A stretch of 64,000 nt of DNA, from positions 31,636 to 95,635 of the forward strand of contig DATLSZ010000029.1 of NCBI GenBank assembly GCA_035533875.1, given 5' to 3'. This DNA is from Candidatus Acidiferrales bacterium (GTDB lineage Bacteria; Patescibacteriota; Microgenomatia; Levybacterales; UBA12049). Both the position numbers and the translations under genes were made by a program. Below the pieces are notes generated by a model. That model did no database searches and was not told the DNA's origin. It saw nothing but the letters and a program-made list of their open reading frames with translations. How positions within the stretch are numbered: position 1 is the first letter of the stretch; every line of letters begins with the position of its first letter. Shown here in pieces: positions 2,319-63,360 of this stretch.

Positions 2319-2783
2319 ATGCATTGTCCGTACTGTGGAAGTAAAGAATCAGAAGTAGTCGAAACACGTGAGAGCTCCGATATGGATACAATTAGAAGAA
2401 GGAGAGCGTGTCTGGTCTGCACCAAACGGTTTACGACATATGAACGGGTCGAGCATGTCCAGCTGATCGTTATCAAAAAGGATGGCAAGCGGGAACAGTT
2501 TGCTCTTGAGAAACTTAAGAGCGGTATTCTCAAAGCATGTGAGAAGACAACTGTTCCGGCAGATACTATAGAGAAGATGGTGCATGAGATCGCACGGGAG
2601 CTGCGTACCATGGGGTCGCTTGAAGTGAAAAGCGAATTGATTGGCGATATGGTAGCCAAGCGTCTGAAGAAACTTGATAAAGTTGCCTATATCCGCTTTG
2701 CCAGTGTCTTCAAAAGGTTTGTCGATGTAGAAGATTTTGAGAAAGAAGTAAAACAATTAATAGTAAATAAGCAGACATTATGA
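2319..2783 (+). CDS. nrdR: transcriptional repressor NrdR (Zn ribbon plus ATP-cone)
   Basis: Starts MHCPYCG and carries a second CxxC (CLVC), as in NrdR. The following ATP-cone region matches the NrdR pattern (RRRxC, VIKKDGxRE). Confidence 0.9.
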   Translation: MHCPYCGSKESEVVETRESSDMDTIRRRRACLVCTKRFTTYERVEHVQLIVIKKDGKREQFALEKLKSGILKACEKTTVPADTIEKMVHEIARELRTMGSLEVKSELIGDMVAKRLKKLDKVAYIRFASVFKRFVDVEDFEKEVKQLIVNKQTL

Positions 2784-3190
2784 AGTTACACACAGAAATA
2801 ATTACTTTATGCGATTATGCACTGATATCGCGAGAAGGGAAATTAAGTATCAACGGAATTTTTGATGAGCTCCGGGTGCAGAAATTTCCCGGCGGCATCG
2901 CACGAGCTTTTTTTGTCGCGACACTGAGGGGGAAAGCGGATACATCATATAAATTGACGATCAAGACGGAGAACGGCAGTAAGGCGCTTAATACACTCAA
3001 TCTTGAAGTGCATACAAGTATGAACGGGAAGAACAATATTATTTTGGAGTTGGTGAATTTGGGGTTTGAGAAAGAGGGAGAGTACAAGTTTGTTATTTAT
3101 GATGGAAAAGATGAAGTCGGCTCGACACAGTTAAAAGTGATGGCAGCCGAACAGCCGAGTGAGGGAGTAAAATACAAGTTACCGAATTAA
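2780..3190 (+). CDS. hypothetical protein translationally coupled to nrdR (ATGA overlap)
   Basis: Its ATG overlaps the nrdR stop codon. It is a 136-aa ORF with no recognisable motif. Confidence 0.5.
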   Translation: MKLHTEIITLCDYALISREGKLSINGIFDELRVQKFPGGIARAFFVATLRGKADTSYKLTIKTENGSKALNTLNLEVHTSMNGKNNIILELVNLGFEKEGEYKFVIYDGKDEVGSTQLKVMAAEQPSEGVKYKLPN

Positions 3191-3195
3191 TAAAT

Positions 3196-3480
3196 ATGAA
3201 TAATATTGGCGGAACTACTATAATATATGATGCAAAAATGCATTTGTCGAATGAAGGAACTTCAGGAACTTTGTCACCTACGCATAAAGTGTTAGGGAGT
3301 ATTTCTTCTATGGGTAGTCAGTTGGGTACAGTTGCTGGTACAGCGACAGTTAATTTGCAAACTAAAGAAATATATGGAAAAAGAGAATTTCATGTCGAGG
3401 GAAACGCAAATCCTATGTTTGGAAACTTAGGATTTAGGTTTACTTATAAACAAGAACAAGGAACACTAATAAAAGGATAA
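3196..3480 (+). CDS. small hypothetical protein between orfX and nrdJ
   Basis: 94-aa ORF rich in G/T/S, separated by 5-nt gaps from both neighbours. It could alternatively be a non-coding leader of nrdJ. Confidence 0.3.
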   Translation: MNNIGGTTIIYDAKMHLSNEGTSGTLSPTHKVLGSISSMGSQLGTVAGTATVNLQTKEIYGKREFHVEGNANPMFGNLGFRFTYKQEQGTLIKG

Positions 3481-3485
3481 ATATT

Positions 3486-6720: not shown

Positions 6721-6899
6721 ATTTGGGTGAATCTCGTGTAAATCGAGAGCTGTGCCGCAACTGTGAACTCCTCTAATGGAGTGAGCCAGATCCCCACATC
6801 CCGTTTGACGGGATAAAAAATCTTCCGAGCAGAAGTCCTTTTTTTGTGGACTCCTCGGATGGCCCTACGGCAAGCTCAGGGCAAGCGAGGAGTTTTTTT
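6721..6899 (+). ncRNA. second cobalamin riboswitch; expression platform sequesters the RBS GAGGAG in a 7-bp stem followed by T7
   Basis: Contains GGTGAATCTCGTGTAAATCGAGAGCTGTGCCGCAACTGTGA plus AGCCAGATCCCC. ACTCCTC (6851-6857) pairs with GAGGAGT (6887-6893), followed by TTTTTTT and the ATG at 6900. Confidence 0.75.
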
Positions 6900-15347: not shown

Positions 15348-17084
15348 ATGGAGGAGTTTTCTTTTAAGAAATTTTTCTATCCGTTGACATCTGTTAAAGC
15401 AGTTCATTTTATTATCCTCACCGGGCTGATTGTTTATTTCAAGAGTTTATTTAACGGATTTGTGTGGGATGATGCAGATCAAATTGTCAATAATCCGTTG
15501 ATTCTTCATCTGGGTAACATCCCTTATTTTTTTACCCACAGTACGTTTTATACGGGCGGAGCACAGTCTGCGTTATCGGGACTTTATTATCGTCCAACAA
15601 TGATGGTTTTGTTTGCACTAACAGCTTCAATGTGGGGAGTCTCTTCATTTATGTTTCATCTCAATACTATTGTGCTGCATATTGCGAACAGTATCTTAAT
15701 TTATTTTTTTATCAAAAAGCTCCTCGGTGTCAATAAATTAAAATATGCAATTCCTGCATCTTTTTCTGCAGCAATGCTCTATCTTGTCCATCCGGCGAAT
15801 GTAGAAGCAGTGGCGTATGTGTCTGCAACATCGGAATTACTCTACACATTTTTTCTTTTAGTTGCATTGAATGCGACTCTTTCTTTTGGATTCAGTAGTA
15901 AATATTCATTTGCCAAGCTGCTGCTGATATTCATTAGTGTTACTTTGTCGCTTTTTTCAAAAGAATCAGCGCTTTTAACGGTACTTTTTGTCCTTTTCCT
16001 TTCTTTTTTCTTCTTCCGTGGTAAGATAAAGATCCTTCTTATACCCAGTTTGCTTGGTGTTGGTTTGTATAGTTTTTTCCGTTTTATTCTATCACATCTT
16101 TCGGCTCCTCAGAATAATATTGGTTTACCGATTGCAAAAGCACCATTAACACAACGGCTTTTTACGGTGCCGTACGAACTCTTTTCGTATATACGGATTA
16201 TCTTATTCCCCAAAGACCTGCATATATCACAAGCGTATATTGTCACAAATCCTTCATCGGTACAATTTTATCTGCCGTTTTTTGCTGATTTTATTATGCT
16301 GTTCATAGGATTGTATTATTTGATTAGAGCAAAATCCAGACTACTTTATTTTTTTACCCTATGGCTTTGTTTGTCTTTGGGACTCGTTCTCAATATCATT
16401 GTACCCTTAGATTTTACTATTGAGGAGCGGTGGCTCTATGTCCCGCTTATCGGCGTTTTTGGTATTGCTGCTGTTATCTTTTCTAACATTTTCGGCAGCA
16501 AATGGAAGTTTTTAAAACAAATATCAGTTGTAGTTGTGATAATAGCAATCATTTTGTTTTCTCTTCGGACAATGATAAGGATAGGTGACTGGGTTGATTC
16601 ATTGACATTATACCGGCATGATATTGTACTTTCACACGATTCATTTGAGCTATATACCAATTATGGATCGACACTATACAGTGTCGGAGAATTAGCACAG
16701 AGTGAAGATGCCTACCGAAAAGCAATCCAATTGGAGCCAAATGATTTATGGGCACTGAATGATCTCGGATCAATTTATGCCAATCAAGGAGACTATAAAA
16801 AAGCAATGCCGCTTTATCAGAAATCAATGCAAATTGCCCCAACATATGCCTCATATGAAAATCTTGCGGAAATATATTATTTGACCGAAAAACCGTTTCA
16901 AGTGATTCCTGTTCTCAAACAATATCTTCAAGTCTTTCCAAATAGCGCAAAACTTAACCAGCTGACAGCATTGGAATACAGTGCAGTAGGAGAGATAGAT
17001 CTCGCTAAAGCATATGCCCGTAAGTCGGCAGCACTTAATTCTACATCGGATAACGTGACACCCTTACTGCCGCTACTACAATAA
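15348..17084 (+). CDS. TMTC-like polytopic membrane protein with C-terminal TPR repeats (putative protein O-mannosyltransferase-like, DUF1736)
   Basis: Signature NGFVWDDADQIVNNP, 9 or more TM helices, and a C-terminal TPR region (YANQGDYKKAMPLYQKSMQIAP). Confidence 0.7.
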   Translation: MEEFSFKKFFYPLTSVKAVHFIILTGLIVYFKSLFNGFVWDDADQIVNNPLILHLGNIPYFFTHSTFYTGGAQSALSGLYYRPTMMVLFALTASMWGVSSFMFHLNTIVLHIANSILIYFFIKKLLGVNKLKYAIPASFSAAMLYLVHPANVEAVAYVSATSELLYTFFLLVALNATLSFGFSSKYSFAKLLLIFISVTLSLFSKESALLTVLFVLFLSFFFFRGKIKILLIPSLLGVGLYSFFRFILSHLSAPQNNIGLPIAKAPLTQRLFTVPYELFSYIRIILFPKDLHISQAYIVTNPSSVQFYLPFFADFIMLFIGLYYLIRAKSRLLYFFTLWLCLSLGLVLNIIVPLDFTIEERWLYVPLIGVFGIAAVIFSNIFGSKWKFLKQISVVVVIIAIILFSLRTMIRIGDWVDSLTLYRHDIVLSHDSFELYTNYGSTLYSVGELAQSEDAYRKAIQLEPNDLWALNDLGSIYANQGDYKKAMPLYQKSMQIAPTYASYENLAEIYYLTEKPFQVIPVLKQYLQVFPNSAKLNQLTALEYSAVGEIDLAKAYARKSAALNSTSDNVTPLLPLLQ

Positions 17085-17117: not shown

Positions 17118-18887
17118 ATGGACGAGTTCATAAAAGCAACAGAGAGAAAAGAAGTTGAAGAAGCGTTTTCTTTCAGGAACTTTTTTGTTCCTTTGACGAC
17201 AGTAAAGGCAATTCATTGGATTGTTATTATCGGGGTTATCGTTTTTGCGAACAGTTTATTTAATGGATTTGTGTGGGATGATAAGACTTATGTTCTCAGT
17301 ATTTCTCAGACGATTGGTTTACATATCATAAAACTCTTCGGACAAAATATCATTACCTTATCTGGCTATTACCGTCCGATTGGCTTATTCTATTTTAGCG
17401 TACTGTATAGTATTTTCGGACAAACACCCTTTTACTATCATCTTCCGCAAATCATCCTTCATATAGTTAATACAGTATTGGTATTTCTTTTATTTGCATC
17501 CTTTTTCAGAAAAAATATTGCTTTTTTTCTCTCCCTTATTTTTTTAGTTCATCCAATCCAGACAGAATCAGTCATCTATATTGCCCCCACTGATGGTATT
17601 CTTTTCTTCTTTTTCGGAATATTGACACTTGTTATCACTAATAATAAACAAACATATCGTTTATGGATTATCACAGGAATATTAATCTTCCTTGCGTTAT
17701 TGACGAAAGAATCGGCAATTGTGTTTATTCTCTTGCTGCTTATCTTCAGAATACTTTTTAATAAAGGTAAAGTTGTACTGTATGGTTTGATAAGCCTTTG
17801 TGCGATGAGCGTGTATTTTTTTATCAGGTTCTTTATATTTCATGTTTATTTTTATCACATTACGTTCATTCCGATGGCACGAGTATCATTTGTTGACAGG
17901 TTATTAAATATTCCTGCAATAACCTGGTATTATTTGAAAACATTTTTTTATCCCACGCACTTGATCATCGACCAGCAATGGGTGATTACGCAGTTCAATT
18001 TTCAAACGTTATATCTTCCGTTATTTATTGATTGTGCCTTCTTTTTTCTCGTTATTTTTTTTAGTATATATCTCTTAAAACATAAGAGCACATTGTTTCG
18101 CGTCTATTTGTTCTTTGTTTTGTGGTTTGGTATCGGACTTGGGATTTACGAACAGATTATACCGCTTGATATGACTGTTGCTAACAGGTGGTTTTATGTG
18201 CCGATTGTCGGTCTGATTGGTATGATCGGCATTGCCATCGAAACATTTTTATTAAAAACTAAAACCAGTAAAAAAACAGTCTATATAGTTTTAATACTTA
18301 TTATAGTTTTACTTTCCGCAAGAACTATGGTCCGAAATACGGATTGGCAAAATGCTCTTATTCTTTATGAACATGACAGCATGCTCACAAGCAGTTATGA
18401 TCTGGAAGGTAATCTTGGTGAAGAATTATACTTGGCTGGCTATAAAGATAAGGCACTGTATCATTATAAAAAATCAGTGAATCTTTTGCCGTTTGACAGG
18501 ACGCTGAATAATATCGGCGTTATCTACGAACGAGAAGGAAAGTATCAACTGGCAAAACAATATTATCTTAAAGCAATCAACGCAGTAGATCCCATGCCGC
18601 CGTATCACCATGATGTAACGCTTTATCAGAATGTGTCACGAATGCTAATATATTTTGGAAATCCTGAAGATGCGGTTACATATCTTAACCAGGGATTGAA
18701 AATATATCCACATGATTATGTATTACTTCTTTTGAAGGGAATGGATGAATATAAATTGCAAGAAACAGAAAAGGCAAAATTATCTTTGCAAAAATCATAT
18801 TCTCTTGCACCAAACGATGCAGCAAAGAAAGTTATTCTGCAGTTCATGAATGATCCCACTCAGCAAATACCGCTGCAAGATTTTTAA
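17118..18887 (+). CDS. TMTC-like polytopic membrane/TPR protein (tandem paralog)
   Basis: NGFVWDDKTYVL motif and the same architecture. The 5' region ATATCTGCTAGGATA upstream of the start is shared with the gene at 15348. Confidence 0.7.
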   Translation: MDEFIKATERKEVEEAFSFRNFFVPLTTVKAIHWIVIIGVIVFANSLFNGFVWDDKTYVLSISQTIGLHIIKLFGQNIITLSGYYRPIGLFYFSVLYSIFGQTPFYYHLPQIILHIVNTVLVFLLFASFFRKNIAFFLSLIFLVHPIQTESVIYIAPTDGILFFFFGILTLVITNNKQTYRLWIITGILIFLALLTKESAIVFILLLLIFRILFNKGKVVLYGLISLCAMSVYFFIRFFIFHVYFYHITFIPMARVSFVDRLLNIPAITWYYLKTFFYPTHLIIDQQWVITQFNFQTLYLPLFIDCAFFFLVIFFSIYLLKHKSTLFRVYLFFVLWFGIGLGIYEQIIPLDMTVANRWFYVPIVGLIGMIGIAIETFLLKTKTSKKTVYIVLILIIVLLSARTMVRNTDWQNALILYEHDSMLTSSYDLEGNLGEELYLAGYKDKALYHYKKSVNLLPFDRTLNNIGVIYEREGKYQLAKQYYLKAINAVDPMPPYHHDVTLYQNVSRMLIYFGNPEDAVTYLNQGLKIYPHDYVLLLLKGMDEYKLQETEKAKLSLQKSYSLAPNDAAKKVILQFMNDPTQQIPLQDF

Positions 18888-29648: not shown

Positions 29649-30119
29649 CTATTGTTTGGATAATTCATCAAACGACACGCGGATATATTCAGGATCTTTG
29701 ATGCCCAATCTTTCTGTAAAGAATTCTTCTGTTGGATTTGCACCGGTTAGGATCAAAAAGTCTCCCACGTCGTCGATGTGGTTGAAGGTAATTTTATACA
29801 TATCCAGCTGAAAGATTTTTCGGGTTCCCTTCAGGATTTTTTTGACACCAAATTCTTGTGTCAATTCTTTCCCTTTCTCTTCAACGATTTCTTTGTTGAT
29901 CCGCTGTTTTTCTCCAACATCAAATGTGCCATCTATTGCAAATAGCGCTTGAATAAAATAGGTATCATTTACTTTTGCTAGTTTCAGTACATGACCGGGC
30001 GGCTGATTGAAATACGTGTCAATAAATGATTGTTCTTCAATAAAATCGGCACCAAGAGGCTTGAGTTTTTCCTCAATTGTTTTAAAGTCCGAAAAGCGAA
30101 TTTTTAGTTCCCGCGCCAT
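29649..30119 (-). CDS. CYTH-domain protein (class IV adenylate cyclase / triphosphatase-like)
   Basis: LKIRF near the N-terminus and HIDDVGDFLILTG match CyaB/CYTH signatures. Confidence 0.55.
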   Translation of the reverse strand: MARELKIRFSDFKTIEEKLKPLGADFIEEQSFIDTYFNQPPGHVLKLAKVNDTYFIQALFAIDGTFDVGEKQRINKEIVEEKGKELTQEFGVKKILKGTRKIFQLDMYKITFNHIDDVGDFLILTGANPTEEFFTERLGIKDPEYIRVSFDELSKQ

Positions 30120-30676
30120 TATTTATATTCCTCTTTCACTTCATCTTTAAAATCCTTCATCAATTTCCGGAGTTTGGGATCGATGACGACTGTGCAGTAG
30201 TCCGGCCGTCTGCCACTTTCATAGAAATTCTGATGTTCTGCTTCTGCTTGATAAAAATTGGTAAACGGCACAATTTCCGTAACGATAGGATTTTCATATT
30301 TTCCTGATTTATCCAACTTTTTTTTTGATGCTTCTGCAAGTCTCTTTTGCTCGTCATTGTGATAAAAAATAATAGAGCGGTATTCGGGACCTATGTCGTA
30401 TCCTTGCTGATTACGTGTCGTAGGATCATGCGTTGCCCAAAAGATATCCAGAAGCTTTTCGAACGATATTATACGTGGATCATATTGTAGTTGTAGCGAC
30501 TCTGCATGTCCGGTCCTTTTCATAGCAACATCCCAGTATGTTGGATTTTCAAAATTACCGCCTGCATATCCTGAAACAACCGATTCAACCCCTTTGATTC
30601 GTTTGAAGACTGCTTCGGTGCACCAGAAGCATCCATTGGCAAATGTCGCGGTTTCTAATTTTTTTGCAGTAGCCAT
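30119..30676 (-). CDS. msrA: peptide-methionine (S)-S-oxide reductase
   Basis: Active-site GCFWC. The start is taken at the internal Met (MATAKK, 30676). Confidence 0.88.
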   Translation of the reverse strand: MATAKKLETATFANGCFWCTEAVFKRIKGVESVVSGYAGGNFENPTYWDVAMKRTGHAESLQLQYDPRIISFEKLLDIFWATHDPTTRNQQGYDIGPEYRSIIFYHNDEQKRLAEASKKKLDKSGKYENPIVTEIVPFTNFYQAEAEHQNFYESGRRPDYCTVVIDPKLRKLMKDFKDEVKEEYK

Positions 30677-30864
30677 ATTTATATTATACAGAGAAAAAGC
30701 TCGGAACGAAATTTTTTCTTGGACCAACCTTTTGAGTTTTAATAGTAGTAGCGCCTCCGCTTTCCGAGGGTCACAGAATTTTTATTGTAATAATAAAAGG
30801 CATTCGTCCTAGCGAAAAAAATTTGTTCCTCACTTATTTATGTTATTAGAAATAAAACGTTAGA

Positions 30865-32077: not shown

Positions 32078-34561
32078 TTATAAATTGTATTTCTTTAGGA
32101 AAGTACTTTTGATAACGGCAACCAAGAATAGATAAGTTGTGGTCAGTAGCGCTAAAATGACAAAATAGAGCGGGGGAGGGACAACCATTCCCAAGGAACC
32201 AGCAAGTGGAGTAAAGGGCAAAAGAATACCGATCGCAACAACTGCTAGTGATGTAATCGTAAGCCAGATGCTCGGACGGCTTTTATAGAACGGGTTTCTT
32301 GCTGTTCTGATCACAAATACGACGAGAATTTCTGTCGCCAGTGATTCCATAAACCAGCCTGTTTGGAAGAGCCCGCCCTTTGCGTGGAACAGAAAAATTA
32401 ATGCACTAAACGTCAGATAATCATAAATAGAACTAAGCGGACCGAAAAATAACATATAATCTTTGATAAAGGAGATATTCCAATGTCTTGGTTTTATCAG
32501 TGATTCGGGATCAACATTATCCGATGGGATTGTCAGCTGCGATACATCATATAAGGTGTTGGTGAGCAAGATCTGAACCGGTGTCATAGGAAGGAAGGTA
32601 AAGAAGAACGATGCGCCGGCAGCAGAAAACATATTGCCGAAATTCGAGCTTGTACTCATTAGGATATATTTGATAGTGTTGCTGAACGTTTTGCGTCCTT
32701 CCACAATACCGTCTGCTATCACATCAAGTCCTTTTCGAAGCAGTACGACGGAGGCGGCATTTTTGGCGACATCCACTGCTGAGTTGACTGATATCCCGAC
32801 TTCGGCATTGTGCAGCGAAGGGAGATCATTGATGCCGTCTCCGAGATAGCCGACAGTATGGCCGTTTGCCTGCAGGGCCTGAATGACTTGCAGTTTTTGC
32901 AACGGTGAAACTCGTGCAAAAATATCCAGATCGTTCACTTTTTCTTTGAGCTGAAGCGGTGTTAATTTTTCCATCTCATCTCCTGTGATAAGACGTGTTG
33001 TATCCATGCCGACTTCTGCACAGATTTTTTGTGTGACAATCTCATTATCACCCGTGATAACTTTGGTCAGGACATTAAGTGCATGTAATTTATCCAGTGC
33101 TTCTTTAGCCGTCTTTTTTGGTATATCAAGGAAGGTAATATACCCATGAAACTCAAGATGATTGACATCATCCCAGGAGTATTCCTTCTTCTCAGGTATC
33201 GATTTTTTCCCAAGACAAATAACCCGGTAGCCGTTTTTCCGTGCTGCAAGGAGTTCTTTTTGTAATTGAGCTTGATTAGTAAGGTTACAGAGCGGTAGTA
33301 TTGCTTCAGGTGCACCTTTAGCAAGAAGTGCTGTTTGGTTATCGTCTTTTACGACGGTATACATGGCTTTTTTGTTGTAATCAAATGGCTCTTCATGGAG
33401 TTTCTTGGTTTTTTGTATAGAGATCTTTTGTTTGAGTGCGTAGTTCCAAAGCGCGACATCGATACCATTGCCATGGGGCTTGGCATTGATAATTGCCGTA
33501 TTACAAACGAGCGCATCGATAAGGACATGCTGATCTTTTTTTCCATGTTTATCCAAGTAATCAACCACGGTTATTTCTCCTTCGGTAAGTGTCCCGGTTT
33601 TGTCGGTGCAGAGTACATCCATATTGCCGAGATTCTCAAGCGATAAAAGCCTTTTGACAACTACGTGTTTTTTTGCGAGTTTGCCAGCACCATGAGACAG
33701 ACTGACGGTTACGATTACAGGAAGCAGCTCTGGAGTTAGTCCAACAGCGATTGCCAGACTAAAGAGAACAGATTGAAGAATTGGGTGACCAACTGCGGCG
33801 TTGATCAAAAAAATGGCAATGGTGAGAAGCACAATAATTCTGAGAATAAAATTCCCAAAGCGCGACAATCCTTTTTGGAATTCGGTTGCGGGTTTGATAA
33901 ACGTCGCACTTTTTGCGATCTTGCCAAATTCCGTTTGTTTGCCTATCTGTAGAATGACCCCTTTGCCCGATCCATTTTCAACACTGGTCCCCATGTAACC
34001 GATATTGTCAGTCCCCGGTGCCGTTTGTTTGAGAATTGTTTTTGCCTCACCGGTCAGCGCAGATTCATTAATTTCAATGTTATTTGTTTCAAGGAATCTG
34101 ATATCCGCCGGGATAATACTTCCCTGTGCCAGAAGAATGATATCTCCCATTGTCAGATGTGATGCAGGCACTTCTATTTTTTCTCCGTTGCGGATGACAA
34201 GAGTTGTTGGCGTAATGCGTTTCATTAAGCCTTCAACAGTTTTTTCAGCACTATACTCATTCCAAAAACCAAGAAAGATGCTGACCACAATAATTCCTAG
34301 AATATAATACGAACTGACCTGTTCTCCCAAAAAAAGTGAAACCATTGCCGCTGCGGTGAGGATAATGATTAACGGATTCCCTGTCAGCTGGCGGAAAAAA
34401 AGGCTGAACATATTGGTACGCGTCATATGGATTGTATTTAATCCATATTGTCTGATCCGCTGTTGTGCTTCTTTGTCAGTAAGTCCGGTATCGGATGAAG
34501 TAATTTGTTTGAGAACTTCTTCAGCTGTCTGCAATTTAGCAGTATGCACATTGTAATTCAT
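32078..34561 (-). CDS. cation-transporting P-type ATPase (P2-type, Ca2+/Mg2+-like)
   Basis: Phosphorylation motif CTDKTGTLT, TGDN, the hinge GDGINDLPSL, and about 10 TM helices. Confidence 0.9.
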   Translation of the reverse strand: MNYNVHTAKLQTAEEVLKQITSSDTGLTDKEAQQRIRQYGLNTIHMTRTNMFSLFFRQLTGNPLIIILTAAAMVSLFLGEQVSSYYILGIIVVSIFLGFWNEYSAEKTVEGLMKRITPTTLVIRNGEKIEVPASHLTMGDIILLAQGSIIPADIRFLETNNIEINESALTGEAKTILKQTAPGTDNIGYMGTSVENGSGKGVILQIGKQTEFGKIAKSATFIKPATEFQKGLSRFGNFILRIIVLLTIAIFLINAAVGHPILQSVLFSLAIAVGLTPELLPVIVTVSLSHGAGKLAKKHVVVKRLLSLENLGNMDVLCTDKTGTLTEGEITVVDYLDKHGKKDQHVLIDALVCNTAIINAKPHGNGIDVALWNYALKQKISIQKTKKLHEEPFDYNKKAMYTVVKDDNQTALLAKGAPEAILPLCNLTNQAQLQKELLAARKNGYRVICLGKKSIPEKKEYSWDDVNHLEFHGYITFLDIPKKTAKEALDKLHALNVLTKVITGDNEIVTQKICAEVGMDTTRLITGDEMEKLTPLQLKEKVNDLDIFARVSPLQKLQVIQALQANGHTVGYLGDGINDLPSLHNAEVGISVNSAVDVAKNAASVVLLRKGLDVIADGIVEGRKTFSNTIKYILMSTSSNFGNMFSAAGASFFFTFLPMTPVQILLTNTLYDVSQLTIPSDNVDPESLIKPRHWNISFIKDYMLFFGPLSSIYDYLTFSALIFLFHAKGGLFQTGWFMESLATEILVVFVIRTARNPFYKSRPSIWLTITSLAVVAIGILLPFTPLAGSLGMVVPPPLYFVILALLTTTYLFLVAVIKSTFLKKYNL

Positions 34562-41621: not shown

Positions 41622-43328
41622 TTACTGCCCGAGATTAATATTCACTGGAAGATTTTGCTGCAGACGGCTATAAAAGATGGCATATTGTTGATCGGGATAG
41701 ATACGATATGCTTGTGCTGCCGCATCAATCGCTTTCTGATGATCGTTTGCTTTGTAATATGCGTAGGCCAAAAGAATAGAGAGCGTATGGCTTGTCGGAA
41801 GCTTCTTCAGCGCTTGATCGGCCAATATTGTTACAGCAGCGTGAGGATGGCCTGTCCGCAATTGTATTGCCGCTAGATTGATATAATATTGTTGCAGGTC
41901 TCCAGCGTATTGTTCTGTCTCATCCGGTCCGATGAGAGTTATAGCCTTTTGATATTCATTCGTTGCAGGACCAAATTGTTTCTGTGCATAGTAAATGTTG
42001 GCAAGATGCCCAATGGTTACAATTTGCGGTGAAAGAGCTATTGATTGTTTATCATAGCGAAGTGCATCAGTGGTATCCCCCTCTCGAAAAAGTGCCATTG
42101 CCAGATCGTCCATGATTATATAATTATCTTTCTGGTCAGCAAGATCATGCATATTTATCATGACGTCATCATGCCAATCAAATGTCCGCACAAAAGTCCG
42201 AAGCGATAATACGATTATTATTATAATTGCCCCAATGGAGAGATAGCGTTTGTTTATTTTTACTGTTACTGCAAGGACTCCCAACATCCCGAGCACACCG
42301 ATCAGTGGTACATAAAACCACCTGTCAGCAACAGTCATCTCCAAAGGAATAATTTGCAGGATCGGCAGCAAATTAATAAGATACCATACGAAAAAGAAAA
42401 CAAATGCTGTGTAATAAGCTGAATGCTGCTTTTTCATTTTGAATAGCACAATGAGGACACCTGCGCCAAGTAAGAGACAAATGAAAAACGGGACAAGAAA
42501 ATTTATTGATGCGACAGATGTAACAACCCATATCTGGTAGATAGAAAGCTTGAGTGGGAAGATAACTGTTTGTAGATAATATATGATAATTGCGGGAATG
42601 TTCAGGATACGTAGTGGAAGTGAGACATTCGCGATTGGCACCCAGCTGTAGATGTTATTAAACGAGAGACTGTTAATCACTCTCAACAAAGAATATATCA
42701 GGATGACTCCTCCTCCGATAACAATAAACGTTTTCAGTTTGTTTACTTTATAAAGATATCGGTAGGTGAGGATAAGAAGAAAAACCAATGCTCCCGTCTC
42801 TTTTGTCATTATGCCTAGCATGAGTAATAATGCGATCCCAAATAATCGTTTGCTTGAAAGATGCTTGGCAGTCGAGAGCAAGAACGCAGTGAGCGCAAAA
42901 AAGAGGGAAAGTTCACTTGCAATGGATGAGATAAAAGCGACCGATTCGACGTTGATCGGATGGGCAAGAAACAGTAATGATAAGATAAAAGACGTTCTTT
43001 TTCCAAAGAATAACCTGAACAGCACAAAGACAAGATATGCATCAATACAATGCAGCAGCAGTTGGAGAAAATGATAGAAAAATGCGTTTTGTCCAAAGAT
43101 TGCATAGAGAAGTGCAAAATATGTTGCCGGTATCGGTCGGTAAAAAGGGATGGTGTTAAAAATATTAGGACCAAATGCGGTGACCAGATTGAACGTGTGC
43201 ACTTGGGGATTGAGCAGAATGAATGCAATATCATCCCAGACAAATCCATTGAAAAAAATTGGGAAGTAGACGATGATGCCAATCAGGAGGATGAGAAAGA
43301 AGTAGTTTCGGTTTTTTGCACTGAACAT
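41622..43328 (-). CDS. TMTC-like polytopic membrane/TPR protein (third paralog)
   Basis: NGFVWDDIAFILLNPQV motif, multi-TM N-terminus and C-terminal TPRs. Confidence 0.7.
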   Translation of the reverse strand: MFSAKNRNYFFLILLIGIIVYFPIFFNGFVWDDIAFILLNPQVHTFNLVTAFGPNIFNTIPFYRPIPATYFALLYAIFGQNAFFYHFLQLLLHCIDAYLVFVLFRLFFGKRTSFILSLLFLAHPINVESVAFISSIASELSLFFALTAFLLSTAKHLSSKRLFGIALLLMLGIMTKETGALVFLLILTYRYLYKVNKLKTFIVIGGGVILIYSLLRVINSLSFNNIYSWVPIANVSLPLRILNIPAIIIYYLQTVIFPLKLSIYQIWVVTSVASINFLVPFFICLLLGAGVLIVLFKMKKQHSAYYTAFVFFFVWYLINLLPILQIIPLEMTVADRWFYVPLIGVLGMLGVLAVTVKINKRYLSIGAIIIIIVLSLRTFVRTFDWHDDVMINMHDLADQKDNYIIMDDLAMALFREGDTTDALRYDKQSIALSPQIVTIGHLANIYYAQKQFGPATNEYQKAITLIGPDETEQYAGDLQQYYINLAAIQLRTGHPHAAVTILADQALKKLPTSHTLSILLAYAYYKANDHQKAIDAAAQAYRIYPDQQYAIFYSRLQQNLPVNINLGQ

Positions 43329-43330
43329 GA

Positions 43331-44065
43331 TTATGAATGATTGTCTTCAAGGATTTTTTTTGCGGTTTTTTTCAGTGACTCCTCTGTTTCTTTTTGGTAC
43401 TCTTGATACAAATACCAGATGCAAAAGATAGTAATAAAAAGAAGTGTGTAGGAGAAAAGAAAAACAATTGTTGCTGACAAACTTTTGATAATCCCCTCCC
43501 CTGTCGTTGTCAGCGAATAGAGAAAAAATCCGATGAGCGCAAAGGGGAGTAAGAGCAGATATCCATGGACCCAATCATTCTTGCTGTGATGCCGATAACG
43601 TCTGGGGACGTGTCTGAAGATATGGGTAAATTCTTTGGGTACATAGAGTGTATAGATAATAAATCCGGTAAAGAAGATGAGACCAAGCAGGGTATTGATA
43701 ACTGCAGTAACTAATCCTTCGACAAAAAAACTCCAAAGGAAAATAAAACTCATCAGTATGGCACCGCTGGCCAGGATGATAGTCCGGAGTTCTTTTTTTG
43801 CCAATTTGCGTGTTTTGGGTACAAAGGATTTGTGCAGCCAATGCTTTGCTTCTTGTTCTTCCTGCATGTAGCGAACTGCGCGTTTGAGACTTTCGTCATT
43901 CTCTTTTTGTATCTCTTTATACAGGTACCAGCTGACAATGAGCATCAAAAGCAGCATGGGGAAGAGGAACACAAATGACGTGCTATTTTGCATTGTTAAC
44001 AGGAGAAGCGCAATGATGATAAAGGCGATTGCAGTGAGACGGGCTTTATGCAATTGATCCAGCAT
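43331..44065 (-). CDS. membrane protein with internal tandem duplication
   Basis: Two similar halves, each with a 2-TM hairpin followed by a LYKEIQKENDESLKR / LYQEYQKETEESLKK-type helix. Confidence 0.45.
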   Translation of the reverse strand: MLDQLHKARLTAIAFIIIALLLLTMQNSTSFVFLFPMLLLMLIVSWYLYKEIQKENDESLKRAVRYMQEEQEAKHWLHKSFVPKTRKLAKKELRTIILASGAILMSFIFLWSFFVEGLVTAVINTLLGLIFFTGFIIYTLYVPKEFTHIFRHVPRRYRHHSKNDWVHGYLLLLPFALIGFFLYSLTTTGEGIIKSLSATIVFLFSYTLLFITIFCIWYLYQEYQKETEESLKKTAKKILEDNHS

Positions 44066-44274
44066 ATTTTTATTATACCTCTCTCATCGTATTATGTCTT
44101 GCAATCAGTTTGGGAAATAACTTGTTTTATAATGTGCGGGTCCTGTCCCGGGCTCCTCCCGTCAGTGCACCCGCATTAATCTATAGCGAAAAAAGTTATT
44201 CCTCGTTCACTTTTTTCTGTTTTATTTTTTATGAACAGCTTGCATTTCTTTTGATAAAGCGTTATATTATTTTT

Positions 44275-44688
44275 ATGTTTGTTGTTTCCTCGTTATTCCT
44301 AAAATTGCTTCCTACCCAGACCGCCTATGCTCATTGTGATCTTCCTTGCGGTGTCTATGATCCGGCACAAGCGAGAATTGAGGCGGAAAGCGTAATGAAG
44401 ATCATGGAGAAGTATTCGGGTTTTCATGAAGATGAACAGAAATGGCGTGCTATCTTTATTAAGGAAGAGCGTGCAGAACTAGTAAAGCATCATCTGTGGG
44501 TATTGTGGACTGATTATTTCAAGCCCGAGCATCTGGAAAAGTTTCCTAATCTGCATGACCTTTTTTGGCGAGCAACCAAAGCTGCAGGCCAAGCAAAAAA
44601 GTCGGTTGACCCTGCAGATGGACAAAAGCTCTTGGATCTCATCGCCGAGATTACAGAGATTTTTAATAAGACAAAACAAGTTAAATAA
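44275..44688 (+). CDS. sodN: nickel superoxide dismutase precursor (Ni-hook HCDLPCGVYDP)
   Basis: Exact Ni-hook motif His-Cys-Asp-Leu-Pro-Cys-Gly-Val-Tyr preceded by a 20-aa pro-peptide. The precursor is about 137 aa, as in Streptomyces SodN. Confidence 0.85.
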   Translation: MFVVSSLFLKLLPTQTAYAHCDLPCGVYDPAQARIEAESVMKIMEKYSGFHEDEQKWRAIFIKEERAELVKHHLWVLWTDYFKPEHLEKFPNLHDLFWRATKAAGQAKKSVDPADGQKLLDLIAEITEIFNKTKQVK

Positions 44689-44767
44689 TTACGTCATTGC
44701 ATGGTCTCGCAATGGCGAAGCAGTCCCCAACGTTATGAGATTGCCGCGCTCCTTTCAGTCGCTCGCA

Positions 44768-45103
44768 ATGACGAATGTTATACAAAAGAAAATTTTAAAA
44801 GTACTACTTTATTTCTCTCCTCTTTATAAATATAAAATTTCCGGTGACAGTATGTCTCCTACCCTTCATAATGGACAAATTGTTTTGGTTAACAGGTTCA
44901 TCTATCTGTTTGCAGCTCCAAAAAAAAATGACATTATTGCAGTTCGGGATCCTCGAGATGGCAAAGTCTTGATCAAGCGGATTAAAAAGATTGAAGACAA
45001 GCGATATTTTGTGTTGGGAGATAACAAAAAAGCCAGTACGGACAGCAGAGTTTTTGGTATGATAGAAAGACAAGATATTGTGGGAAAAGTATGGTTGTCT
45101 TAA
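44768..45103 (+). CDS. sodX: S26 signal-peptidase-like NiSOD maturation protease
   Basis: Catalytic Ser motif GDSMSPTL and a lysine region. It is short (111 aa) and lies immediately downstream of sodN. Confidence 0.65.
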   Translation: MTNVIQKKILKVLLYFSPLYKYKISGDSMSPTLHNGQIVLVNRFIYLFAAPKKNDIIAVRDPRDGKVLIKRIKKIEDKRYFVLGDNKKASTDSRVFGMIERQDIVGKVWLS

Positions 45104-45630
45104 TTCTCTGTTTGCTTGTTATTGTTATTCTACTGTTTCTTCTTTCCATGCTCTGGCCGCCGGATAGTCCGTGGTCGCCTTGGTGGCGGACTACGCCAAA
45201 GCTCGCACGGGTTGAATGTGATCTTGCCAAAGTAAAGAAAGGAGATGTCATTTATGATCTCGGGTCGGGTGAAGGAATTGCGCTTATTACCGCAGCAAAG
45301 GAATACGGAGCGCGGGGAGTAGGGATTGAGATTGACCCGCTCAGAGTGTTTATTGCAAAAATCAGGATTAAACTTGCGGGAGTTGCGGACAAAATTGAAA
45401 TCAGACGGGATAATTTTTGGAATCAGGATATTTCGGAGGCGACTGTTATTTTTATGTATCTAATCCCCAGAACGCTAATCAAGCTTCGTCCAAAGTTTCT
45501 TAAGGAATTAAAACCAGGTACCCGAGTCGTGACCTTTGTCTACAAGATGGATCTGCCCATGATCGCAAAGGATGATGCAGCAGAGCTGTATGTGTACGAA
45601 ATACCGAAGAAGAATAAGATTGGAGATTAA
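45091..45630 (+). CDS. membrane-anchored class I SAM-dependent methyltransferase
   Basis: N-terminal TM helix followed by the SAM-binding motif VIYDLGSGEG. Confidence 0.55.
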   Translation: MVVLILCLLVIVILLFLLSMLWPPDSPWSPWWRTTPKLARVECDLAKVKKGDVIYDLGSGEGIALITAAKEYGARGVGIEIDPLRVFIAKIRIKLAGVADKIEIRRDNFWNQDISEATVIFMYLIPRTLIKLRPKFLKELKPGTRVVTFVYKMDLPMIAKDDAAELYVYEIPKKNKIGD

Positions 45631-57159: not shown

Positions 57160-58983
57160 TTAATAATAAATACGTATCGTACCGGAATAATTGAGCGGGC
57201 AGGTAAAATTATTACCTGTTGCGCATGAAATAGTATAGGTATGGTGTGTTGTTGTATAGGTATTTCCGTTGGAACATTGGCCTGACACTATGTATACTTC
57301 ATTATTATGTATGGCTCTGTTTTTCATGTAATCGATCGTTGCGTTCGGCAAGAGGAATTGCTGCTGCTGAGAATACGCTTCATAATTGCTCATGTAATTT
57401 TGATAATTATCTGGTGATACAGCAAGACAGATATGAGAAAGGGAATTAGGAGACTGGAGAGACTGCTGCATATAGCGTAGGGACATTGTCGGTGAGAGCT
57501 GATATTGTTTTTCTTGCTGAAGAAAATAAAACATATGCATATCCAAATACCCTGGCATACCGACATTTTTATTTGCAGGCTGTTTGGTATAAAACGTAAG
57601 TAGTTGAATTAACAGATAACAGATCATAACAGTGATAAAGAGATAGCGTAGGTTTTTATGTCTAATTGCTGAGATACAATAAGTAATGCCGATGGCGACA
57701 AAAATTGAAGCAATAGCAAACAGCGGGCTTACTCTGTGGGAGGCATTTATCCAGTCAGTTATCGCACTGGTGAAGAACGGGAGAACAATAAGTAAAAACA
57801 ACAGGATATTTAAGAAAGAATTTTTAAGAACAAAAAAAGCATACCCTATTCCCAATAGAAAGAATATTGCCAAAAACGGAGTGAAAATAGGTTTGACATC
57901 AGGATAGAAAAAGGTTGTGGGTTCATAAATATATACCATTATTGATCGTATATAGTTATTTTTTAATGTTGATATATTTTGTGCAGTAATAGGTGAGCTT
58001 TCTTGCATTTGATTCTCAAATACAAATCTGCTGCTGTGAAAGAAATCCTGCGTGCCGGTAAAAAGCAACCTTGGCCCAAATCCTACAAAGAAGAATATCA
58101 GCAAAACAGCAAGCTTGCCAAAACGGAGAGCACGTTTTTCTTCAAGCGCAAATTTTTTTACAATCATCTCCCGGAACTCAAGAAAGAAAAGGATAAGGAG
58201 GATGAGACAGGCAAATACTCTAATTGCTGCATGAAACCCGGAAGCAAACCCGAGCACAGTGCCAAAGAATGCATAATCAACAAAACGATGCCGTTTTAAC
58301 AGGATAAATAATACGAGAAGAATTACTGGTACCCAAAAGAGGTTAAATGCAACAACGACCTGGGTATGCGCAAAATACATATGCAATGGGAGTGTGGCAA
58401 GAACCAAGGCACTCCAAAATGCAGTCGATCTATTGAGAACAAGCCGTATTAAGAAGTACAACAAGATAACATCTGCGGTTGATAACAGTGCGGCGGGAAA
58501 TCTGTACGCTAAGGTGCTATTGCCAAAAAGATAATAGAAGGGTATCGTAAGTGTTGGAATGATCAGCCCATGGGCATCATAGCTGCCGTATCCGAAAATG
58601 TTCCCCAGGACACCGGAGGCAATTTTCATAGCATAAAGCCCCCCGTCCCGTAACTCATCAGCGATACTAACATATGGATAAATTGAGAGAAACAGAAAAT
58701 TTGCCAGGACCGAGATCAGTACGATAATGATGAGAGGGTTAATTTCTTTCTCTGTAACTATTTTTTTTAAAGGTATTTTTGATACATTCTGTAAGATATA
58801 GAGAAAGAGTACGGCTAACAGTGAAATAATATGCAGTCCAAAAGAGAGCCAGCGGAAGTAAAAGTATGGATCGCTGCTGACTATTCTGAGTGAATATAAA
58901 TAGGTTATAATGCTAACAATAACAACAATCCATGGGAAGTTTTTTGATTGTATTAGTTTGGTAAAGTTCATGGTAAAGAACAC
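57160..58983 (-). CDS. GT-C glycosyltransferase (ArnT/PMT, GT39/GT83-like)
   Basis: Polytopic membrane protein with an acidic loop motif ADELRDGG near the first periplasmic loop. Confidence 0.65.
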   Translation of the reverse strand: MFFTMNFTKLIQSKNFPWIVVIVSIITYLYSLRIVSSDPYFYFRWLSFGLHIISLLAVLFLYILQNVSKIPLKKIVTEKEINPLIIIVLISVLANFLFLSIYPYVSIADELRDGGLYAMKIASGVLGNIFGYGSYDAHGLIIPTLTIPFYYLFGNSTLAYRFPAALLSTADVILLYFLIRLVLNRSTAFWSALVLATLPLHMYFAHTQVVVAFNLFWVPVILLVLFILLKRHRFVDYAFFGTVLGFASGFHAAIRVFACLILLILFFLEFREMIVKKFALEEKRALRFGKLAVLLIFFFVGFGPRLLFTGTQDFFHSSRFVFENQMQESSPITAQNISTLKNNYIRSIMVYIYEPTTFFYPDVKPIFTPFLAIFFLLGIGYAFFVLKNSFLNILLFLLIVLPFFTSAITDWINASHRVSPLFAIASIFVAIGITYCISAIRHKNLRYLFITVMICYLLIQLLTFYTKQPANKNVGMPGYLDMHMFYFLQQEKQYQLSPTMSLRYMQQSLQSPNSLSHICLAVSPDNYQNYMSNYEAYSQQQQFLLPNATIDYMKNRAIHNNEVYIVSGQCSNGNTYTTTHHTYTISCATGNNFTCPLNYSGTIRIYY

Positions 58984-61677: not shown

Positions 61678-63360
61678 TTATTTGCTTTCATTTTTGAATA
61701 TGATGACTTTTGGATGGTCATAGACAGTGAATGCTTCCTCAGCGGCGTCATCTGAAGTAGTAAGCGGAATTCCCATATAGGTAAGTGACGGATAGGAAGT
61801 AAATACTGCGACTTCTTTATACTGTGTTTTTCCTGCCAATAAATCATGATAGAACTTCATCATTTTCGGATAGCGTTCAGGAACGGTTGGGATACTGCCA
61901 TACCCGCGATTGGACGAAAGGATGAGATAGTTTCCTTTTTTCAACAGTGCATTCATGGTATTCCATTTTTGAGTAGTATCCGGATCAAAAACAGGAAGCT
62001 GTTTGGGGATATAGTTTCTGCTGGACATATCGAAGATCGGAAGCGGGAGGCCGTCATCCCAGCTTTCAGTCAGCAGAATACTATTTGCCGGGATGTGCTG
62101 ATAGATCCATTCTGATGCGCTGACGCGGGTGACAGGTTTGGTATACAATGAAAAAAATAGCATCGGCCAGATGATGGTAAACAAAAGAAGCAGAGCTTGT
62201 ATGAATGTTGGGATCCGTTTGGGAAAATAAGCAAAGCCGATGCCGGCAAAAAGAGCGAGGAACGGGTAAATGAAAATAAAGTACCGCATTGTTTGGACAG
62301 TCTGCATGCCCTGATAGATAAAAAATAATACCACCCAGGCCAATATGATGTACAGATCGGCATTTCGGATTTTTTTGAAAATAATGGAGATTCCTAGAAG
62401 TATGCAGAGCATATAGCCGATACCGACACCGAACAGTGTAAGATTTTTCCAAGCAAAAAGGATTGGTGTCTTATGGATCCACTGGACGCTAGGCGGGTAC
62501 CAGGCCTGCGGACTACTCCAATATGAGAGCTCTTTGAGATTTTGTAAAAATAACTTGCTCGGGCTAGGGTCAAGAAAATTGTTTGATTGGAAGAGGTATG
62601 GATCGGCAATCCGTCCGACAATATAGGTGACGATGCCGAAAAGCAGCATATTACCAAAAAGCGGCACGAGGTCACTTCTTGCGATTTTCTTTTTTTCCGT
62701 ATATGCGTTGACGAAAAAATATAAAAGAAGTGGCGCAAGAAAGATAGCTGTTGCTTTTGATGCAATACCGAGCCCCAAAAAAATCCCGCCGAAAATGATC
62801 CATTTGCTTTGTCTTGTAAAGGAAAAACGGAGCGAGAAATAAAAAGTAAGATAAACGAAGGCACTCATGAAGGTATCAACAGTAAAAAAATGTGAAAGCT
62901 GGATAGGTAAGACGGAAATTGCATAAAAAAATGCTGCCCAGTATTTGACCTTTTTGTTGAGTTTGTATCGCCTCTCAAAAAGCTCGCATGTTTTGAATAC
63001 AATTGCTACTATCAGAAGATCCACAAAACCTGAGAGCATTCTTCCAAGCAGTGTGAAGTTGTTATACGTGTCATTGCCGGTTGCGATTGCAAGAAGCTTG
63101 TTCGCGATAACCGGAAATGTTCCGTAGACATAAAAGGAATGGCCGATATTTGCCGGATTCATCGGTGAGTTTTGCGGAGAAAGATAATTGATAATGGAAT
63201 GAGGAATTTTCATATCTGTCCCGACCATGGTGAGGAACCGTTCATCAGGATGCAGATGTTGGTTTGCGTCCCAGTTAAGGTCATAAAATCTGAGGAATGC
63301 ACCGAGGAGGATTATCGCAAGCAGCAACAATTTTTTCTTCATTCCTCTATTGTATAACAC
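61678..63360 (-). CDS. GT-C glycosyltransferase (PMT/ArnT, GT39-like)
   Basis: HPDERF loop motif, as in the DE motif of the PMT/ArnT family, plus 10 or more TM helices. Confidence 0.7.
   Translation of the reverse strand: MLYNRGMKKKLLLLAIILLGAFLRFYDLNWDANQHLHPDERFLTMVGTDMKIPHSIINYLSPQNSPMNPANIGHSFYVYGTFPVIANKLLAIATGNDTYNNFTLLGRMLSGFVDLLIVAIVFKTCELFERRYKLNKKVKYWAAFFYAISVLPIQLSHFFTVDTFMSAFVYLTFYFSLRFSFTRQSKWIIFGGIFLGLGIASKATAIFLAPLLLYFFVNAYTEKKKIARSDLVPLFGNMLLFGIVTYIVGRIADPYLFQSNNFLDPSPSKLFLQNLKELSYWSSPQAWYPPSVQWIHKTPILFAWKNLTLFGVGIGYMLCILLGISIIFKKIRNADLYIILAWVVLFFIYQGMQTVQTMRYFIFIYPFLALFAGIGFAYFPKRIPTFIQALLLLFTIIWPMLFFSLYTKPVTRVSASEWIYQHIPANSILLTESWDDGLPLPIFDMSSRNYIPKQLPVFDPDTTQKWNTMNALLKKGNYLILSSNRGYGSIPTVPERYPKMMKFYHDLLAGKTQYKEVAVFTSYPSLTYMGIPLTTSDDAAEEAFTVYDHPKVIIFKNESK

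Follow-up and report, generated by a model that had tools for sequence, protein, structure and literature searches.

The DNA considered here is a 64,000 nt stretch of contig DATLSZ010000029.1 (hereafter the window), which carries a gene for nickel superoxide dismutase (NiSOD), sodN, followed by the gene for its predicted maturation protease, sodX, and preceded by an unusually GC-rich hairpin that lies between sodN and a divergently oriented membrane protein gene. We consider it likely that this locus is an ordinary NiSOD system in a Levybacteria-like (Patescibacteria) genome, and that the hairpin is a truncated, lineage-specific relic and not a conserved regulator. The sodN-sodX system is already known and is common in this lineage, and the window contributes a new member. 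If this reading is correct, the presence of NiSOD in a genome of the candidate phyla radiation (CPR) is not an oddity but a widespread, vertically inherited trait that marks routine exposure to oxygen, and the striking hairpin beside a metal enzyme gene would be a decaying remnant of an intergenic hairpin element instead of a metal sensor.

The product of sodN (137 aa, from an open reading frame running from ATG to stop) matches the Pfam family Sod_Ni PF09055 with 152.7 bits (cutoff 25; E = 9e-45) and the NCBIfam equivalog TIGR02753 with 160.4 bits (cutoff 90). Alignment with structures in the PDB (chains 1t6q and 1q0d of the mature Streptomyces enzyme, and also 1t6i/1t6u) places His20 of SodN at residue 1 of the mature Streptomyces protein. 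Specifically, the first 21 residues of mature SodN, HCDLPCGVYDPAQARIEAESV, are identical to those of the solved Streptomyces enzyme, and the mature N-terminus carries the nickel-binding pattern His-Cys-x-x-Pro-Cys-Gly-x-Tyr. An earlier note on this DNA had reported the exact nickel hook HCDLPCGVYDP, which is indeed found at SodN residues 20-30 and aligns with the Streptomyces structure. The note had also proposed a pro-peptide of 20 aa; a pro-peptide does precede the hook, but it is 19 aa long (MFVVSSLFLKLLPTQTAYA). Relatives of SodN have the same pro-peptide length and the same junction between ...TAYA and HCD. These features identify SodN as a bona fide NiSOD, for which nickel binding and dismutation are predicted. 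A public call of the same gene (P0001; 44122-44688, 188 aa) begins approximately 51 codons too early and runs through the hairpin, because the DNA inserted upstream of sodN (see below) has no in-frame stop codon. Related SodN proteins are 135-139 aa long, compared with the 188 aa of this public call.

The gene that begins 79 nt downstream of sodN on the same strand encodes a short peptidase of the S26 family, as had been claimed from its GDSMSPTL motif. Its product scores 77.5 bits against TIGR02754, the equivalog model for the nickel-type superoxide dismutase maturation protease (cutoff 63.25), 88.4 bits against the signal peptidase I model TIGR02227 (cutoff 47), and E = 3e-24 against Pfam Peptidase_S26. 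In alignment with the solved signal peptidases 4me8 and 4wvh, Ser28 (in GDSMSPTL) and Lys70 (in LIKRI) of the catalytic dyad fall on the SM-PTL and KR motifs, and the protein also has box E (GDN..S.DSR). Hence both the hook residues of SodN and the Ser/Lys dyad of SodX, on which the earlier identification depended, are conserved upon alignment. The adjacency of the two genes is kept in syntenic loci, and we conclude that the gene downstream of sodN codes for its maturation protease, with cleavage of the SodN precursor as the predicted reaction. A gene for an S-adenosylmethionine (SAM)-dependent methyltransferase, which overlaps the end of sodX, probably belongs to the operon as its third gene and follows sodX in most Levybacteria loci. 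The encoded protein is small and has an N-terminal hydrophobic segment; its top NCBIfam match is an archaeal protein-lysine methyltransferase, with a score below the cutoff.

In this protein family, cleavage by SodX permits His1 and the Cys residues to bind nickel. By the same route, SodN of the window would be synthesized with its 19 aa pro-peptide, the neighboring Ser/Lys peptidase would remove it, and the exposure of His1 would enable the HCxxPCGxY hook to bind the metal. The SodN pro-peptide of Streptomyces is 14 aa long, versus the 19 aa seen here. The sodN-sodX pairs of Streptomyces coelicolor and S. seoulensis otherwise resemble that of the window in their identical mature N-terminus, in the removal of a pro-peptide to expose His1, and in the adjacent S26-type peptidase with a Ser/Lys dyad. 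In the window, however, the two genes form one operon on the same strand, with sodX as the downstream gene, whereas in Streptomyces the sodN 5' untranslated region (UTR) faces the sodN-sodX intergenic region (PMC3919588). In Streptomyces, the s-SodF RNA targets this 5' UTR, and there would be no target for such a mechanism in the window because its sodN appears to be leaderless. Also, a Nur box is present in Streptomyces, whereas none is detected above chance at sodN of the window. Cyanobacterial and marine operons share the layout of the window, sodN being followed by sodX on one strand, and come from genomes that are small and streamlined; sodN is mentioned together with sodX in PMC8346466 and PMC4284471. 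Unlike these, the Levybacteria operon has a conserved methyltransferase gene added, its sodN is paired with a conserved divergent membrane protein gene, and one sub-clade has a palindromic element between sodN and sodX.

The earlier note had called NiSOD unusual for reduced genomes of this kind, a view that the distribution of the gene does not bear out. A protein search with SodN returned at least 8000 scored candidates, and the best 120 of these, for which identities are given, are 77-100% identical to the query; those among the 120 that are named are mostly from Patescibacteria or Levybacteria. Among species representatives of the GTDB, at least 574 loci contain a confirmed sodN, including loci from Levybacteria, Saccharibacteria, Parcubacteria and many Actinomycetota. 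Furthermore, a published survey found superoxide dismutase genes (of any type) in 83% of Patescibacteria metagenome-assembled genomes from oxic groundwater. Levybacteria loci repeatedly show the same succession of genes: RNase H, membrane protein, sodN, sodX and methyltransferase. In a quick neighbor-joining tree of SodN, the window groups with loci L081 (whose SodN is 93% identical) and L082 within a Levybacteria clade and apart from the Actinomycetota, although for the relationship between CPR and actinomycetotal proteins this tree is only suggestive. Around sodN, the GC content (0.40) equals that of the remaining window. Together with this distribution, the conserved gene order, the nesting within the Levybacteria clade and the unremarkable GC content argue that NiSOD is common and vertically inherited in this group, and they carry no sign of recent transfer. 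Two entries have names that do not fit this picture: locus L006 is labeled Gammaproteobacteria, and a protein identical to the membrane protein of the window (P0123) is named 'Candidatus Acidoferrales bacterium' at NCBI. Both show Levybacteria gene order and sodN affinity, and for this reason the bins from which they come are probably mislabeled.

To place the hairpin in its context, the spacer between sodN and the divergent membrane protein gene was compared among 20 syntenic metagenome loci, retrieved with the membrane protein as a query, and three loci of close sodN relatives. Between the two start codons (44066-44274) the window has 209 nt. In contrast, the same spacer is only 64-88 nt long and lacks the hairpin in 15 syntenic relatives, L081 among them. 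The ancestral-type layout, noted in this spacer of L081 and L086-L103, has a single central palindromic TTGCAA that serves as a -35 element common to both divergent promoters. On the sodN side, 15 of the 16 loci tested share the order TTGCAA or TTGCAT, 17 nt, TAnnnT, 6-8 nt and start codon. The additional DNA in the window is a 133 nt insertion placed exactly at this shared -35 element, which is now doubled: the sequences CTTGCAAT and CTTGCATT, identical at seven of eight positions, flank the insertion. We propose that the insertion split a compact spacer of 64-88 nt in which back-to-back promoters shared their palindromic -35 element, leaving a duplicated copy on either side, the right one of which would now act as the -35 element of sodN. 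In the window, the promoter-like sites of both genes end 6 nt before their start codons (6-8 nt for that of sodN across the 15 loci), which implies leaderless mRNAs. Both sodN and the membrane protein gene thus appear to be leaderless, and transcription of sodN, together with sodX and the methyltransferase gene in the same operon, would start from this conserved promoter.

A GC-rich stem with an internal CCCGGG had been noted in this divergent promoter region, and its existence is confirmed. The 42 nt hairpin, which reads GTGCGGGT...ACCCGCA, has a predicted folding energy of -21.4 kcal/mol as RNA (z = -4.0), and none of 200 shuffled sequences folds as well. Its outer stem consists of seven Watson-Crick pairs and a terminal G-U pair, not of eight perfect pairs. 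The GC content reaches 75% over 40 nt, compared with approximately 40% for the window, where only one 40 nt stretch is richer, and that one is coding. The hairpin occurs once in the window, approximately 65 nt upstream of the -35 element of sodN and approximately 35 nt upstream of that of the membrane protein gene. It would lie outside both predicted transcripts, that of sodN included because sodN appears to be leaderless.

The origin of the hairpin is suggested by the only significant match that a sensitive blastn search of the insertion gave among all fetched loci, an identity of 29 of 32 nt with L091; L096 gave a shorter match. Both loci contain a longer element, of which the matched sequence forms the 5' end. 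It measures 122 nt in L091 and, with an additional internal segment, 180 nt in L096, and it occupies the spacer between the RNase H and membrane protein genes, whose 3' ends face each other. The hairpin of the window corresponds to the first 32 nt of this element followed without a gap by the final 7 nt (CACCCGC). The local alignment score between the hairpin and L091 is 49, versus 15.8 +/- 2.3 (maximum 25) in 500 shuffles, and a covariance model built from L091 and L096 matches the hairpin from end to end (E = 2.6e-5). The element of L091 is predicted to fold into a long rod of -47.8 kcal/mol, with z = -6.0 for the strand equivalent to the plus strand of the window and z = -2.8 for its complement. 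Its basal helix shows a compensatory change, with GCGGGT/ACCCGC in L091 and GTGGGT/ACCCAC in L096. Because the 3' pairing partner of the retained 5' strand is missing from the window, internal deletion is a simpler account than insertion, and we infer that the hairpin is an internally deleted derivative of a rod-like hairpin element of approximately 122 nt. It would therefore not be part of the NiSOD machinery but is most likely a decaying and functionally neutral relic, left between the two promoters in DNA that is probably not transcribed.

When the covariance model was run against the window, 20 kb of the L091 genome and 50 other CPR loci, no additional copy of the long element was detected, and the element is rare, not a high-copy repeat. 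Its full-length form may act as an elaborate terminator for the RNase H gene or as a small RNA, or it may be a mobile element of old origin. Rfam and ARAGORN recognize nothing in the long element of L091 and L096, and viral contigs match its two ends only over chance lengths of 15-21 nt. No Rfam 15 family reaches its gathering score in the window, and a search of 43900-45200 at E <= 10 gave two chance-level matches, neither of them on the hairpin; tRNA scans covering the window as well as the spacers and related elements were likewise negative. We also considered L082 as the site of a second relic, with a degenerate 3' half in the same spacer, and rejected it: the local score is 19 against 17 +/- 2.5 for shuffles, and just a 12 nt match (CGTGCYACCCGC) is left. 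Two more families of rod-like hairpins (B and C, approximately 100-140 nt) are present in the spacers between RNase H and membrane protein genes and between membrane protein genes and sodN of other Levybacteria. They share the conserved base AUUUUCUUGG...CAG.GAAAAU, and their outer stems differ in sequence with complementarity kept. For the remaining part of the 133 nt insertion, a kinship with the hairpin of family C in L102 and L082 was not accepted, as the score of 25 is borderline against a shuffle maximum of 24.

Several observations weigh against the interpretation of the hairpin as a neutral relic. Consensus matches and conservation are the source of the proposed promoters, of the leaderless start and of the view that the hairpin is not transcribed. 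No locus is closer to the window than L081 in the sodN tree, yet L081 does not carry the insertion, and a glycosyltransferase gene beside the locus is common to L081, the window and L082; this pattern requires a clean loss or recombination in the L081 lineage. The long element, which may be a terminator, an RNA gene or a mobile element, was found in two species-level variants only, with one copy per 20 kb. Also, the hairpin is very stable for its composition and directly follows a TATAAT sequence, with a weak AT-rich stem and T-run downstream of it, and a short transcript may arise from this region. A similar caution holds for the palindromic element between sodN and sodX described below, whose copy in the window folds only marginally better than shuffled sequences (z = -1.7 to -1.8).

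The same evidence bears on four other explanations of the hairpin. One that is possible, if rather doubtful, is that the hairpin or the whole 133 nt insertion is a small mobile element of the kind known as a miniature inverted-repeat transposable element (MITE), which transposed into the shared -35 element with target duplication. The direct repeat bracketing the insertion, present as a single copy in relatives, is consistent with such an event, as are the different spacer occupied by the related long element in L091 and L096 and the other hairpin families that L090, L093, L098, L102 and L082 have in these two spacers. However, the window has one copy in its 64 kb, the L091 genome one per 20 kb and a set of 50 additional CPR loci none; the vicinity contains no transposase, the copies in L091 and L096 show no target duplication, and the hairpin accounts for only 42 of the 133 inserted bases, the remainder being without a significant match anywhere. 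Promoter MITEs such as the Correia elements of Neisseria resemble the insertion in being short and hairpin-forming, in being bracketed by what looks like a duplicated target, in their position between promoters and in the supply of a new -35 element from that target. Unlike them, the insertion shows no evidence of multiple copies, conserved terminal inverted repeats or partner transposase. A MITE-like element may still influence both promoters, as Correia elements or enterobacterial repetitive intergenic consensus (ERIC) elements do. It is unlikely that the hairpin is instead a functional RNA, whether a short small RNA made from the adjacent TATAAT (44128-44133, immediately upstream) or a terminator or insulator between the divergent genes. 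Its stable fold speaks for a role of this kind, as do the AT-rich stem and T-run (44188-44229) that could end a transcript of approximately 90 nt, the strand bias of the L091 element, which hints at G-U pairs and selection at the RNA level, and the single compensatory change (C-G to U-A) between L091 and L096. Yet the TATAAT has no usable -35 element at a distance of 16-18 nt and no extended -10 element (the nearest TG is 3 nt, not 1 nt, before the hexamer). A scan of 43900-45300 revealed no terminator-like sites, the stem is followed by TTAATCTATAGCG and not by a U-run, and there is nothing to terminate, as no gene on either strand is transcribed towards the hairpin. The hairpin is also missing from the same spacer in relatives and matches no Rfam family.

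The earlier suggestion that the stem serves sodN as a metal-responsive operator or an RNA element is not supported, given its absence from 15 syntenic relatives, its position outside the predicted mRNA, the lack of an Rfam match and the frequency of Nur and NikR boxes, which does not rise above chance. A DNA operator for Nur, NikR or another metal-responsive regulator of both sodN and the membrane protein gene would account for palindromic DNA between two divergent promoters, and TTGCAATCAGTTTGGGA (44099-44115) resembles the Streptomyces Nur box tTGCaa-N5-ttGCAA with two mismatches. We regard this proposal as very improbable, since the window holds 52 Nur-like matches where 67 +/- 10 are expected and 26 NikR-like matches (GTATGA-N16-TCATAC) where 29 +/- 5 are expected, the Nur-like TTGCAATCAGTTTGGGA spans the insertion junction and hence is not ancestral, the 15 relatives without the hairpin retain both promoters, and the window contains no regulator gene. 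To our knowledge, the arms of the hairpin (7-8 bp, 26 bp apart) are unlike known Fur-family or NikR sites. Least credible of all is that the GC-rich stretch encodes a 15 aa Cys/His peptide, MCGSCPGLLPSVHPH (44133-44180), a micro-protein or leader that would bind metal. A frame of 15 codons with CxxC and HPH motifs starts from an ATG at 44133, but this ATG arises at the TATAAT-G junction and has no visible ribosome-binding site, and in L091 the corresponding frame continues straight from the RNase H stop codon. The peptide was rejected on the ground that the homologous 5' segments of L091 and L096 have no start codon in that frame. The account that we favor for the hairpin remains that of an internally deleted relic.

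A second element of interest lies between sodN and sodX, where an inverted repeat had also been pointed out. Its arms, CGTCATTGC (44692-44700) and GCAATGACG (44765-44773), are present and complementary at all nine positions. Comparison with related loci reveals a family of palindromes with conserved 12 nt inverted termini, inner arms of the AATCCAG/CTGGATT type and a variable loop. An intact copy of 77 nt occupies the same place in L082 and has the layout CGTCATTGCGAG...GCAATCTC-loop-GAGATTGC...CTCGCAATGACG. The copy in the window retains 9 + 9 nt of the termini and the GAGATTGC inner arm, and its 5' inner half is scrambled. Intermediate versions are found in the same spacer of L088 and L081, a 27 nt stub remains in L083-L085, and the element is wholly absent from the sodN-sodX spacer of distant relatives in the same synteny group. 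Because the orthologous copy in L082 is intact, the inverted repeat of the window is best understood as the basal part of a palindromic element that is widespread and has no name, here present as a decayed copy. Intact copies have z scores of -4.5 and -4.3 against shuffles.

Both exact 12 nt termini occur in 61 IMG/VR contigs, in some of them as tandem arrays. At least 40 matching places lie on a single 1.76 Mb replicon of Novosphingobium resinovorum (NZ_CP017076.1), and more copies are carried by Methylosinus and Methylobacterium plasmids, where none is annotated. Tandem arrays with a period of approximately 156 nt are seen in L204 (3051-3441) and L229 (4414-4804), and in L209 and L215 the palindrome recurs approximately 5 kb apart. 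No Rfam model exists for this very widespread sequence, in which the sodX start codon lies, and a literature search on its sequence returned unrelated primer matches only and no description.

The ATG of sodX lies inside GCAATGACG and is paired in the predicted minimum-energy fold in each of the five loci folded (the window, L081, L082, L083 and L088). In the window, the surviving basal stem would thus bury the start codon of sodX. Repetitive extragenic palindromic (REP) sequences stabilize upstream mRNA and reduce expression of the downstream gene. By analogy, the stem may protect the sodN message and lower the translation of sodX, so that less protease than substrate is made. The element resembles the REP sequences and bacterial interspersed mosaic elements (BIMEs) of Enterobacteria in being an imperfect palindrome (here approximately 62-84 nt), in its intergenic location, in its many copies in some genomes and in its position within an operon between a highly needed and a less needed gene. 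In contrast to them, it forms a sequence family of its own (CGTCATTGCGAG...CTCGCAATGACG) without the GTAG head of REPs associated with RAYT transposases, it spans phyla (Patescibacteria, Alphaproteobacteria and the IMG/VR contigs), and it has a single copy in the 64 kb of the window.

The membrane protein encoded divergently from sodN has six predicted transmembrane helices, an internal repeat and a near-invariant cytoplasmic His-rich loop, RYRHHSKNDWVH. It matches no Pfam or NCBIfam family above the cutoff, and only approximately 54 homologues are found among 5.8 billion proteins. The gene adjoins sodN divergently in every locus with both flanks readable. An AlphaFold2 model of the protein is of modest quality (predicted local distance difference test score, pLDDT, 70.6; predicted template modeling score, pTM, 0.41), and a Foldseek search of the PDB with this model gave no match below E = 5. 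Speculatively, the protein may take part in nickel handling as an importer or delivery factor. The earlier note took NiSOD to imply nickel uptake; among approximately 55 open reading frames annotated with Pfam across the 64 kb of the window, the part of the genome covered, none belongs to NikABCDE, NiCoT, HupE/UreJ, CbiMNQO, NikR or the Fur family. A broader proposal is that Levybacteria possess a dedicated, co-regulated NiSOD module that extends beyond sodN-sodX, in which the membrane protein, whose gene shares the -35 element with sodN, is the missing nickel importer or delivery factor of these reduced genomes, the palindrome sets the ratio of protease to substrate, and the rod-like hairpins are a new structured RNA specific to Levybacteria. 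We judge this combination to be quite unlikely. The coordinates of the features discussed are compiled in Table 1.

Table 1. Features of the sodN locus, with positions in the 64,000 nt window unless another locus is named
Feature	Position	Strand	Details
Membrane protein, six transmembrane helices, function unassigned	43331-44065	-	Divergent from sodN; His-rich loop RYRHHSKNDWVH
Promoter-like site of membrane protein gene	44072-44100	-	AAGACA-17-TATAAT, ends 6 nt before ATG; consensus scan, putative function
Left direct-repeat copy CTTGCAAT	44098-44105		Ancestral common -35 region; one copy in relatives
Lineage-specific insertion	44106-44238		133 nt; spacer comparison, 20 syntenic loci
GC-rich hairpin GTGCGGGT...ACCCGCA	44134-44175	+	42 nt; CCCGGG at 44148-44153
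Right direct-repeat copy CTTGCATT	44239-44246		Would provide the present sodN -35 element
Promoter-like site of sodN	44240-44268	+	TTGCAT-17-TATATT, ends 6 nt before ATG; putative function
sodN, NiSOD precursor	44275-44688	+	137 aa; Pfam, NCBIfam, PDB alignment
SodN pro-peptide	44275-44331	+	19 aa, MFVVSSLFLKLLPTQTAYA
SodN nickel hook HCDLPCGVYDP	44332-44364	+	SodN residues 20-30
Decayed palindromic element, CGTCATTGCGAG...CTCGCAATGACG family	44692-44773	+	3' arm holds sodX start codon; orthologous copies
sodX, predicted S26-family NiSOD maturation protease	44768-45103	+	111 aa; GDSMSPTL; Ser28, Lys70
SAM-dependent methyltransferase	45091-45630	+	13 nt overlap with sodX; also follows sodX in related loci
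Hairpin families B and C, sites in other loci	L093 630-810; L098 990-1165; L090 membrane protein-sodN spacer; L102 370-530; L082 1197-1330		

Other genes of the window were recorded in passing. A methionine sulfoxide reductase gene, msrA (30119-30727, minus strand), is a second oxidative-stress gene, and near it lies the gene for a P-type (type II-like) cation ATPase (32078-34561, minus strand); neither belongs to the known nickel systems. The region 2319-5921, likewise redox-related, encodes NrdR and a B12-dependent ribonucleotide reductase. Genes for PMT_2-type (glycosyl)transferase-like membrane proteins, some with tetratricopeptide (TPR) repeats, are located at 41622-43328, 15348-17084, 17118-18887, 57160-58983 and 61678-63360. 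The product of the first of these is 31-35% identical to those of 15348-17084 and 17118-18887, and its gene stands between the RNase H and membrane protein genes only in the lineage of the window, L081 and L082. An open reading frame of 475 aa without a Pfam match has a GC-rich start, GGACTCCTCGGATGGCCCTACGGCAAGCTCAGGGCAAGCGAGGAG (6846-6892), that looks like another repeat-type sequence. Finally, a homologue of the TrwB/VirD4-like type IV secretion coupling protein is encoded at 10013-12394 (plus strand), following open reading frames that match no family.

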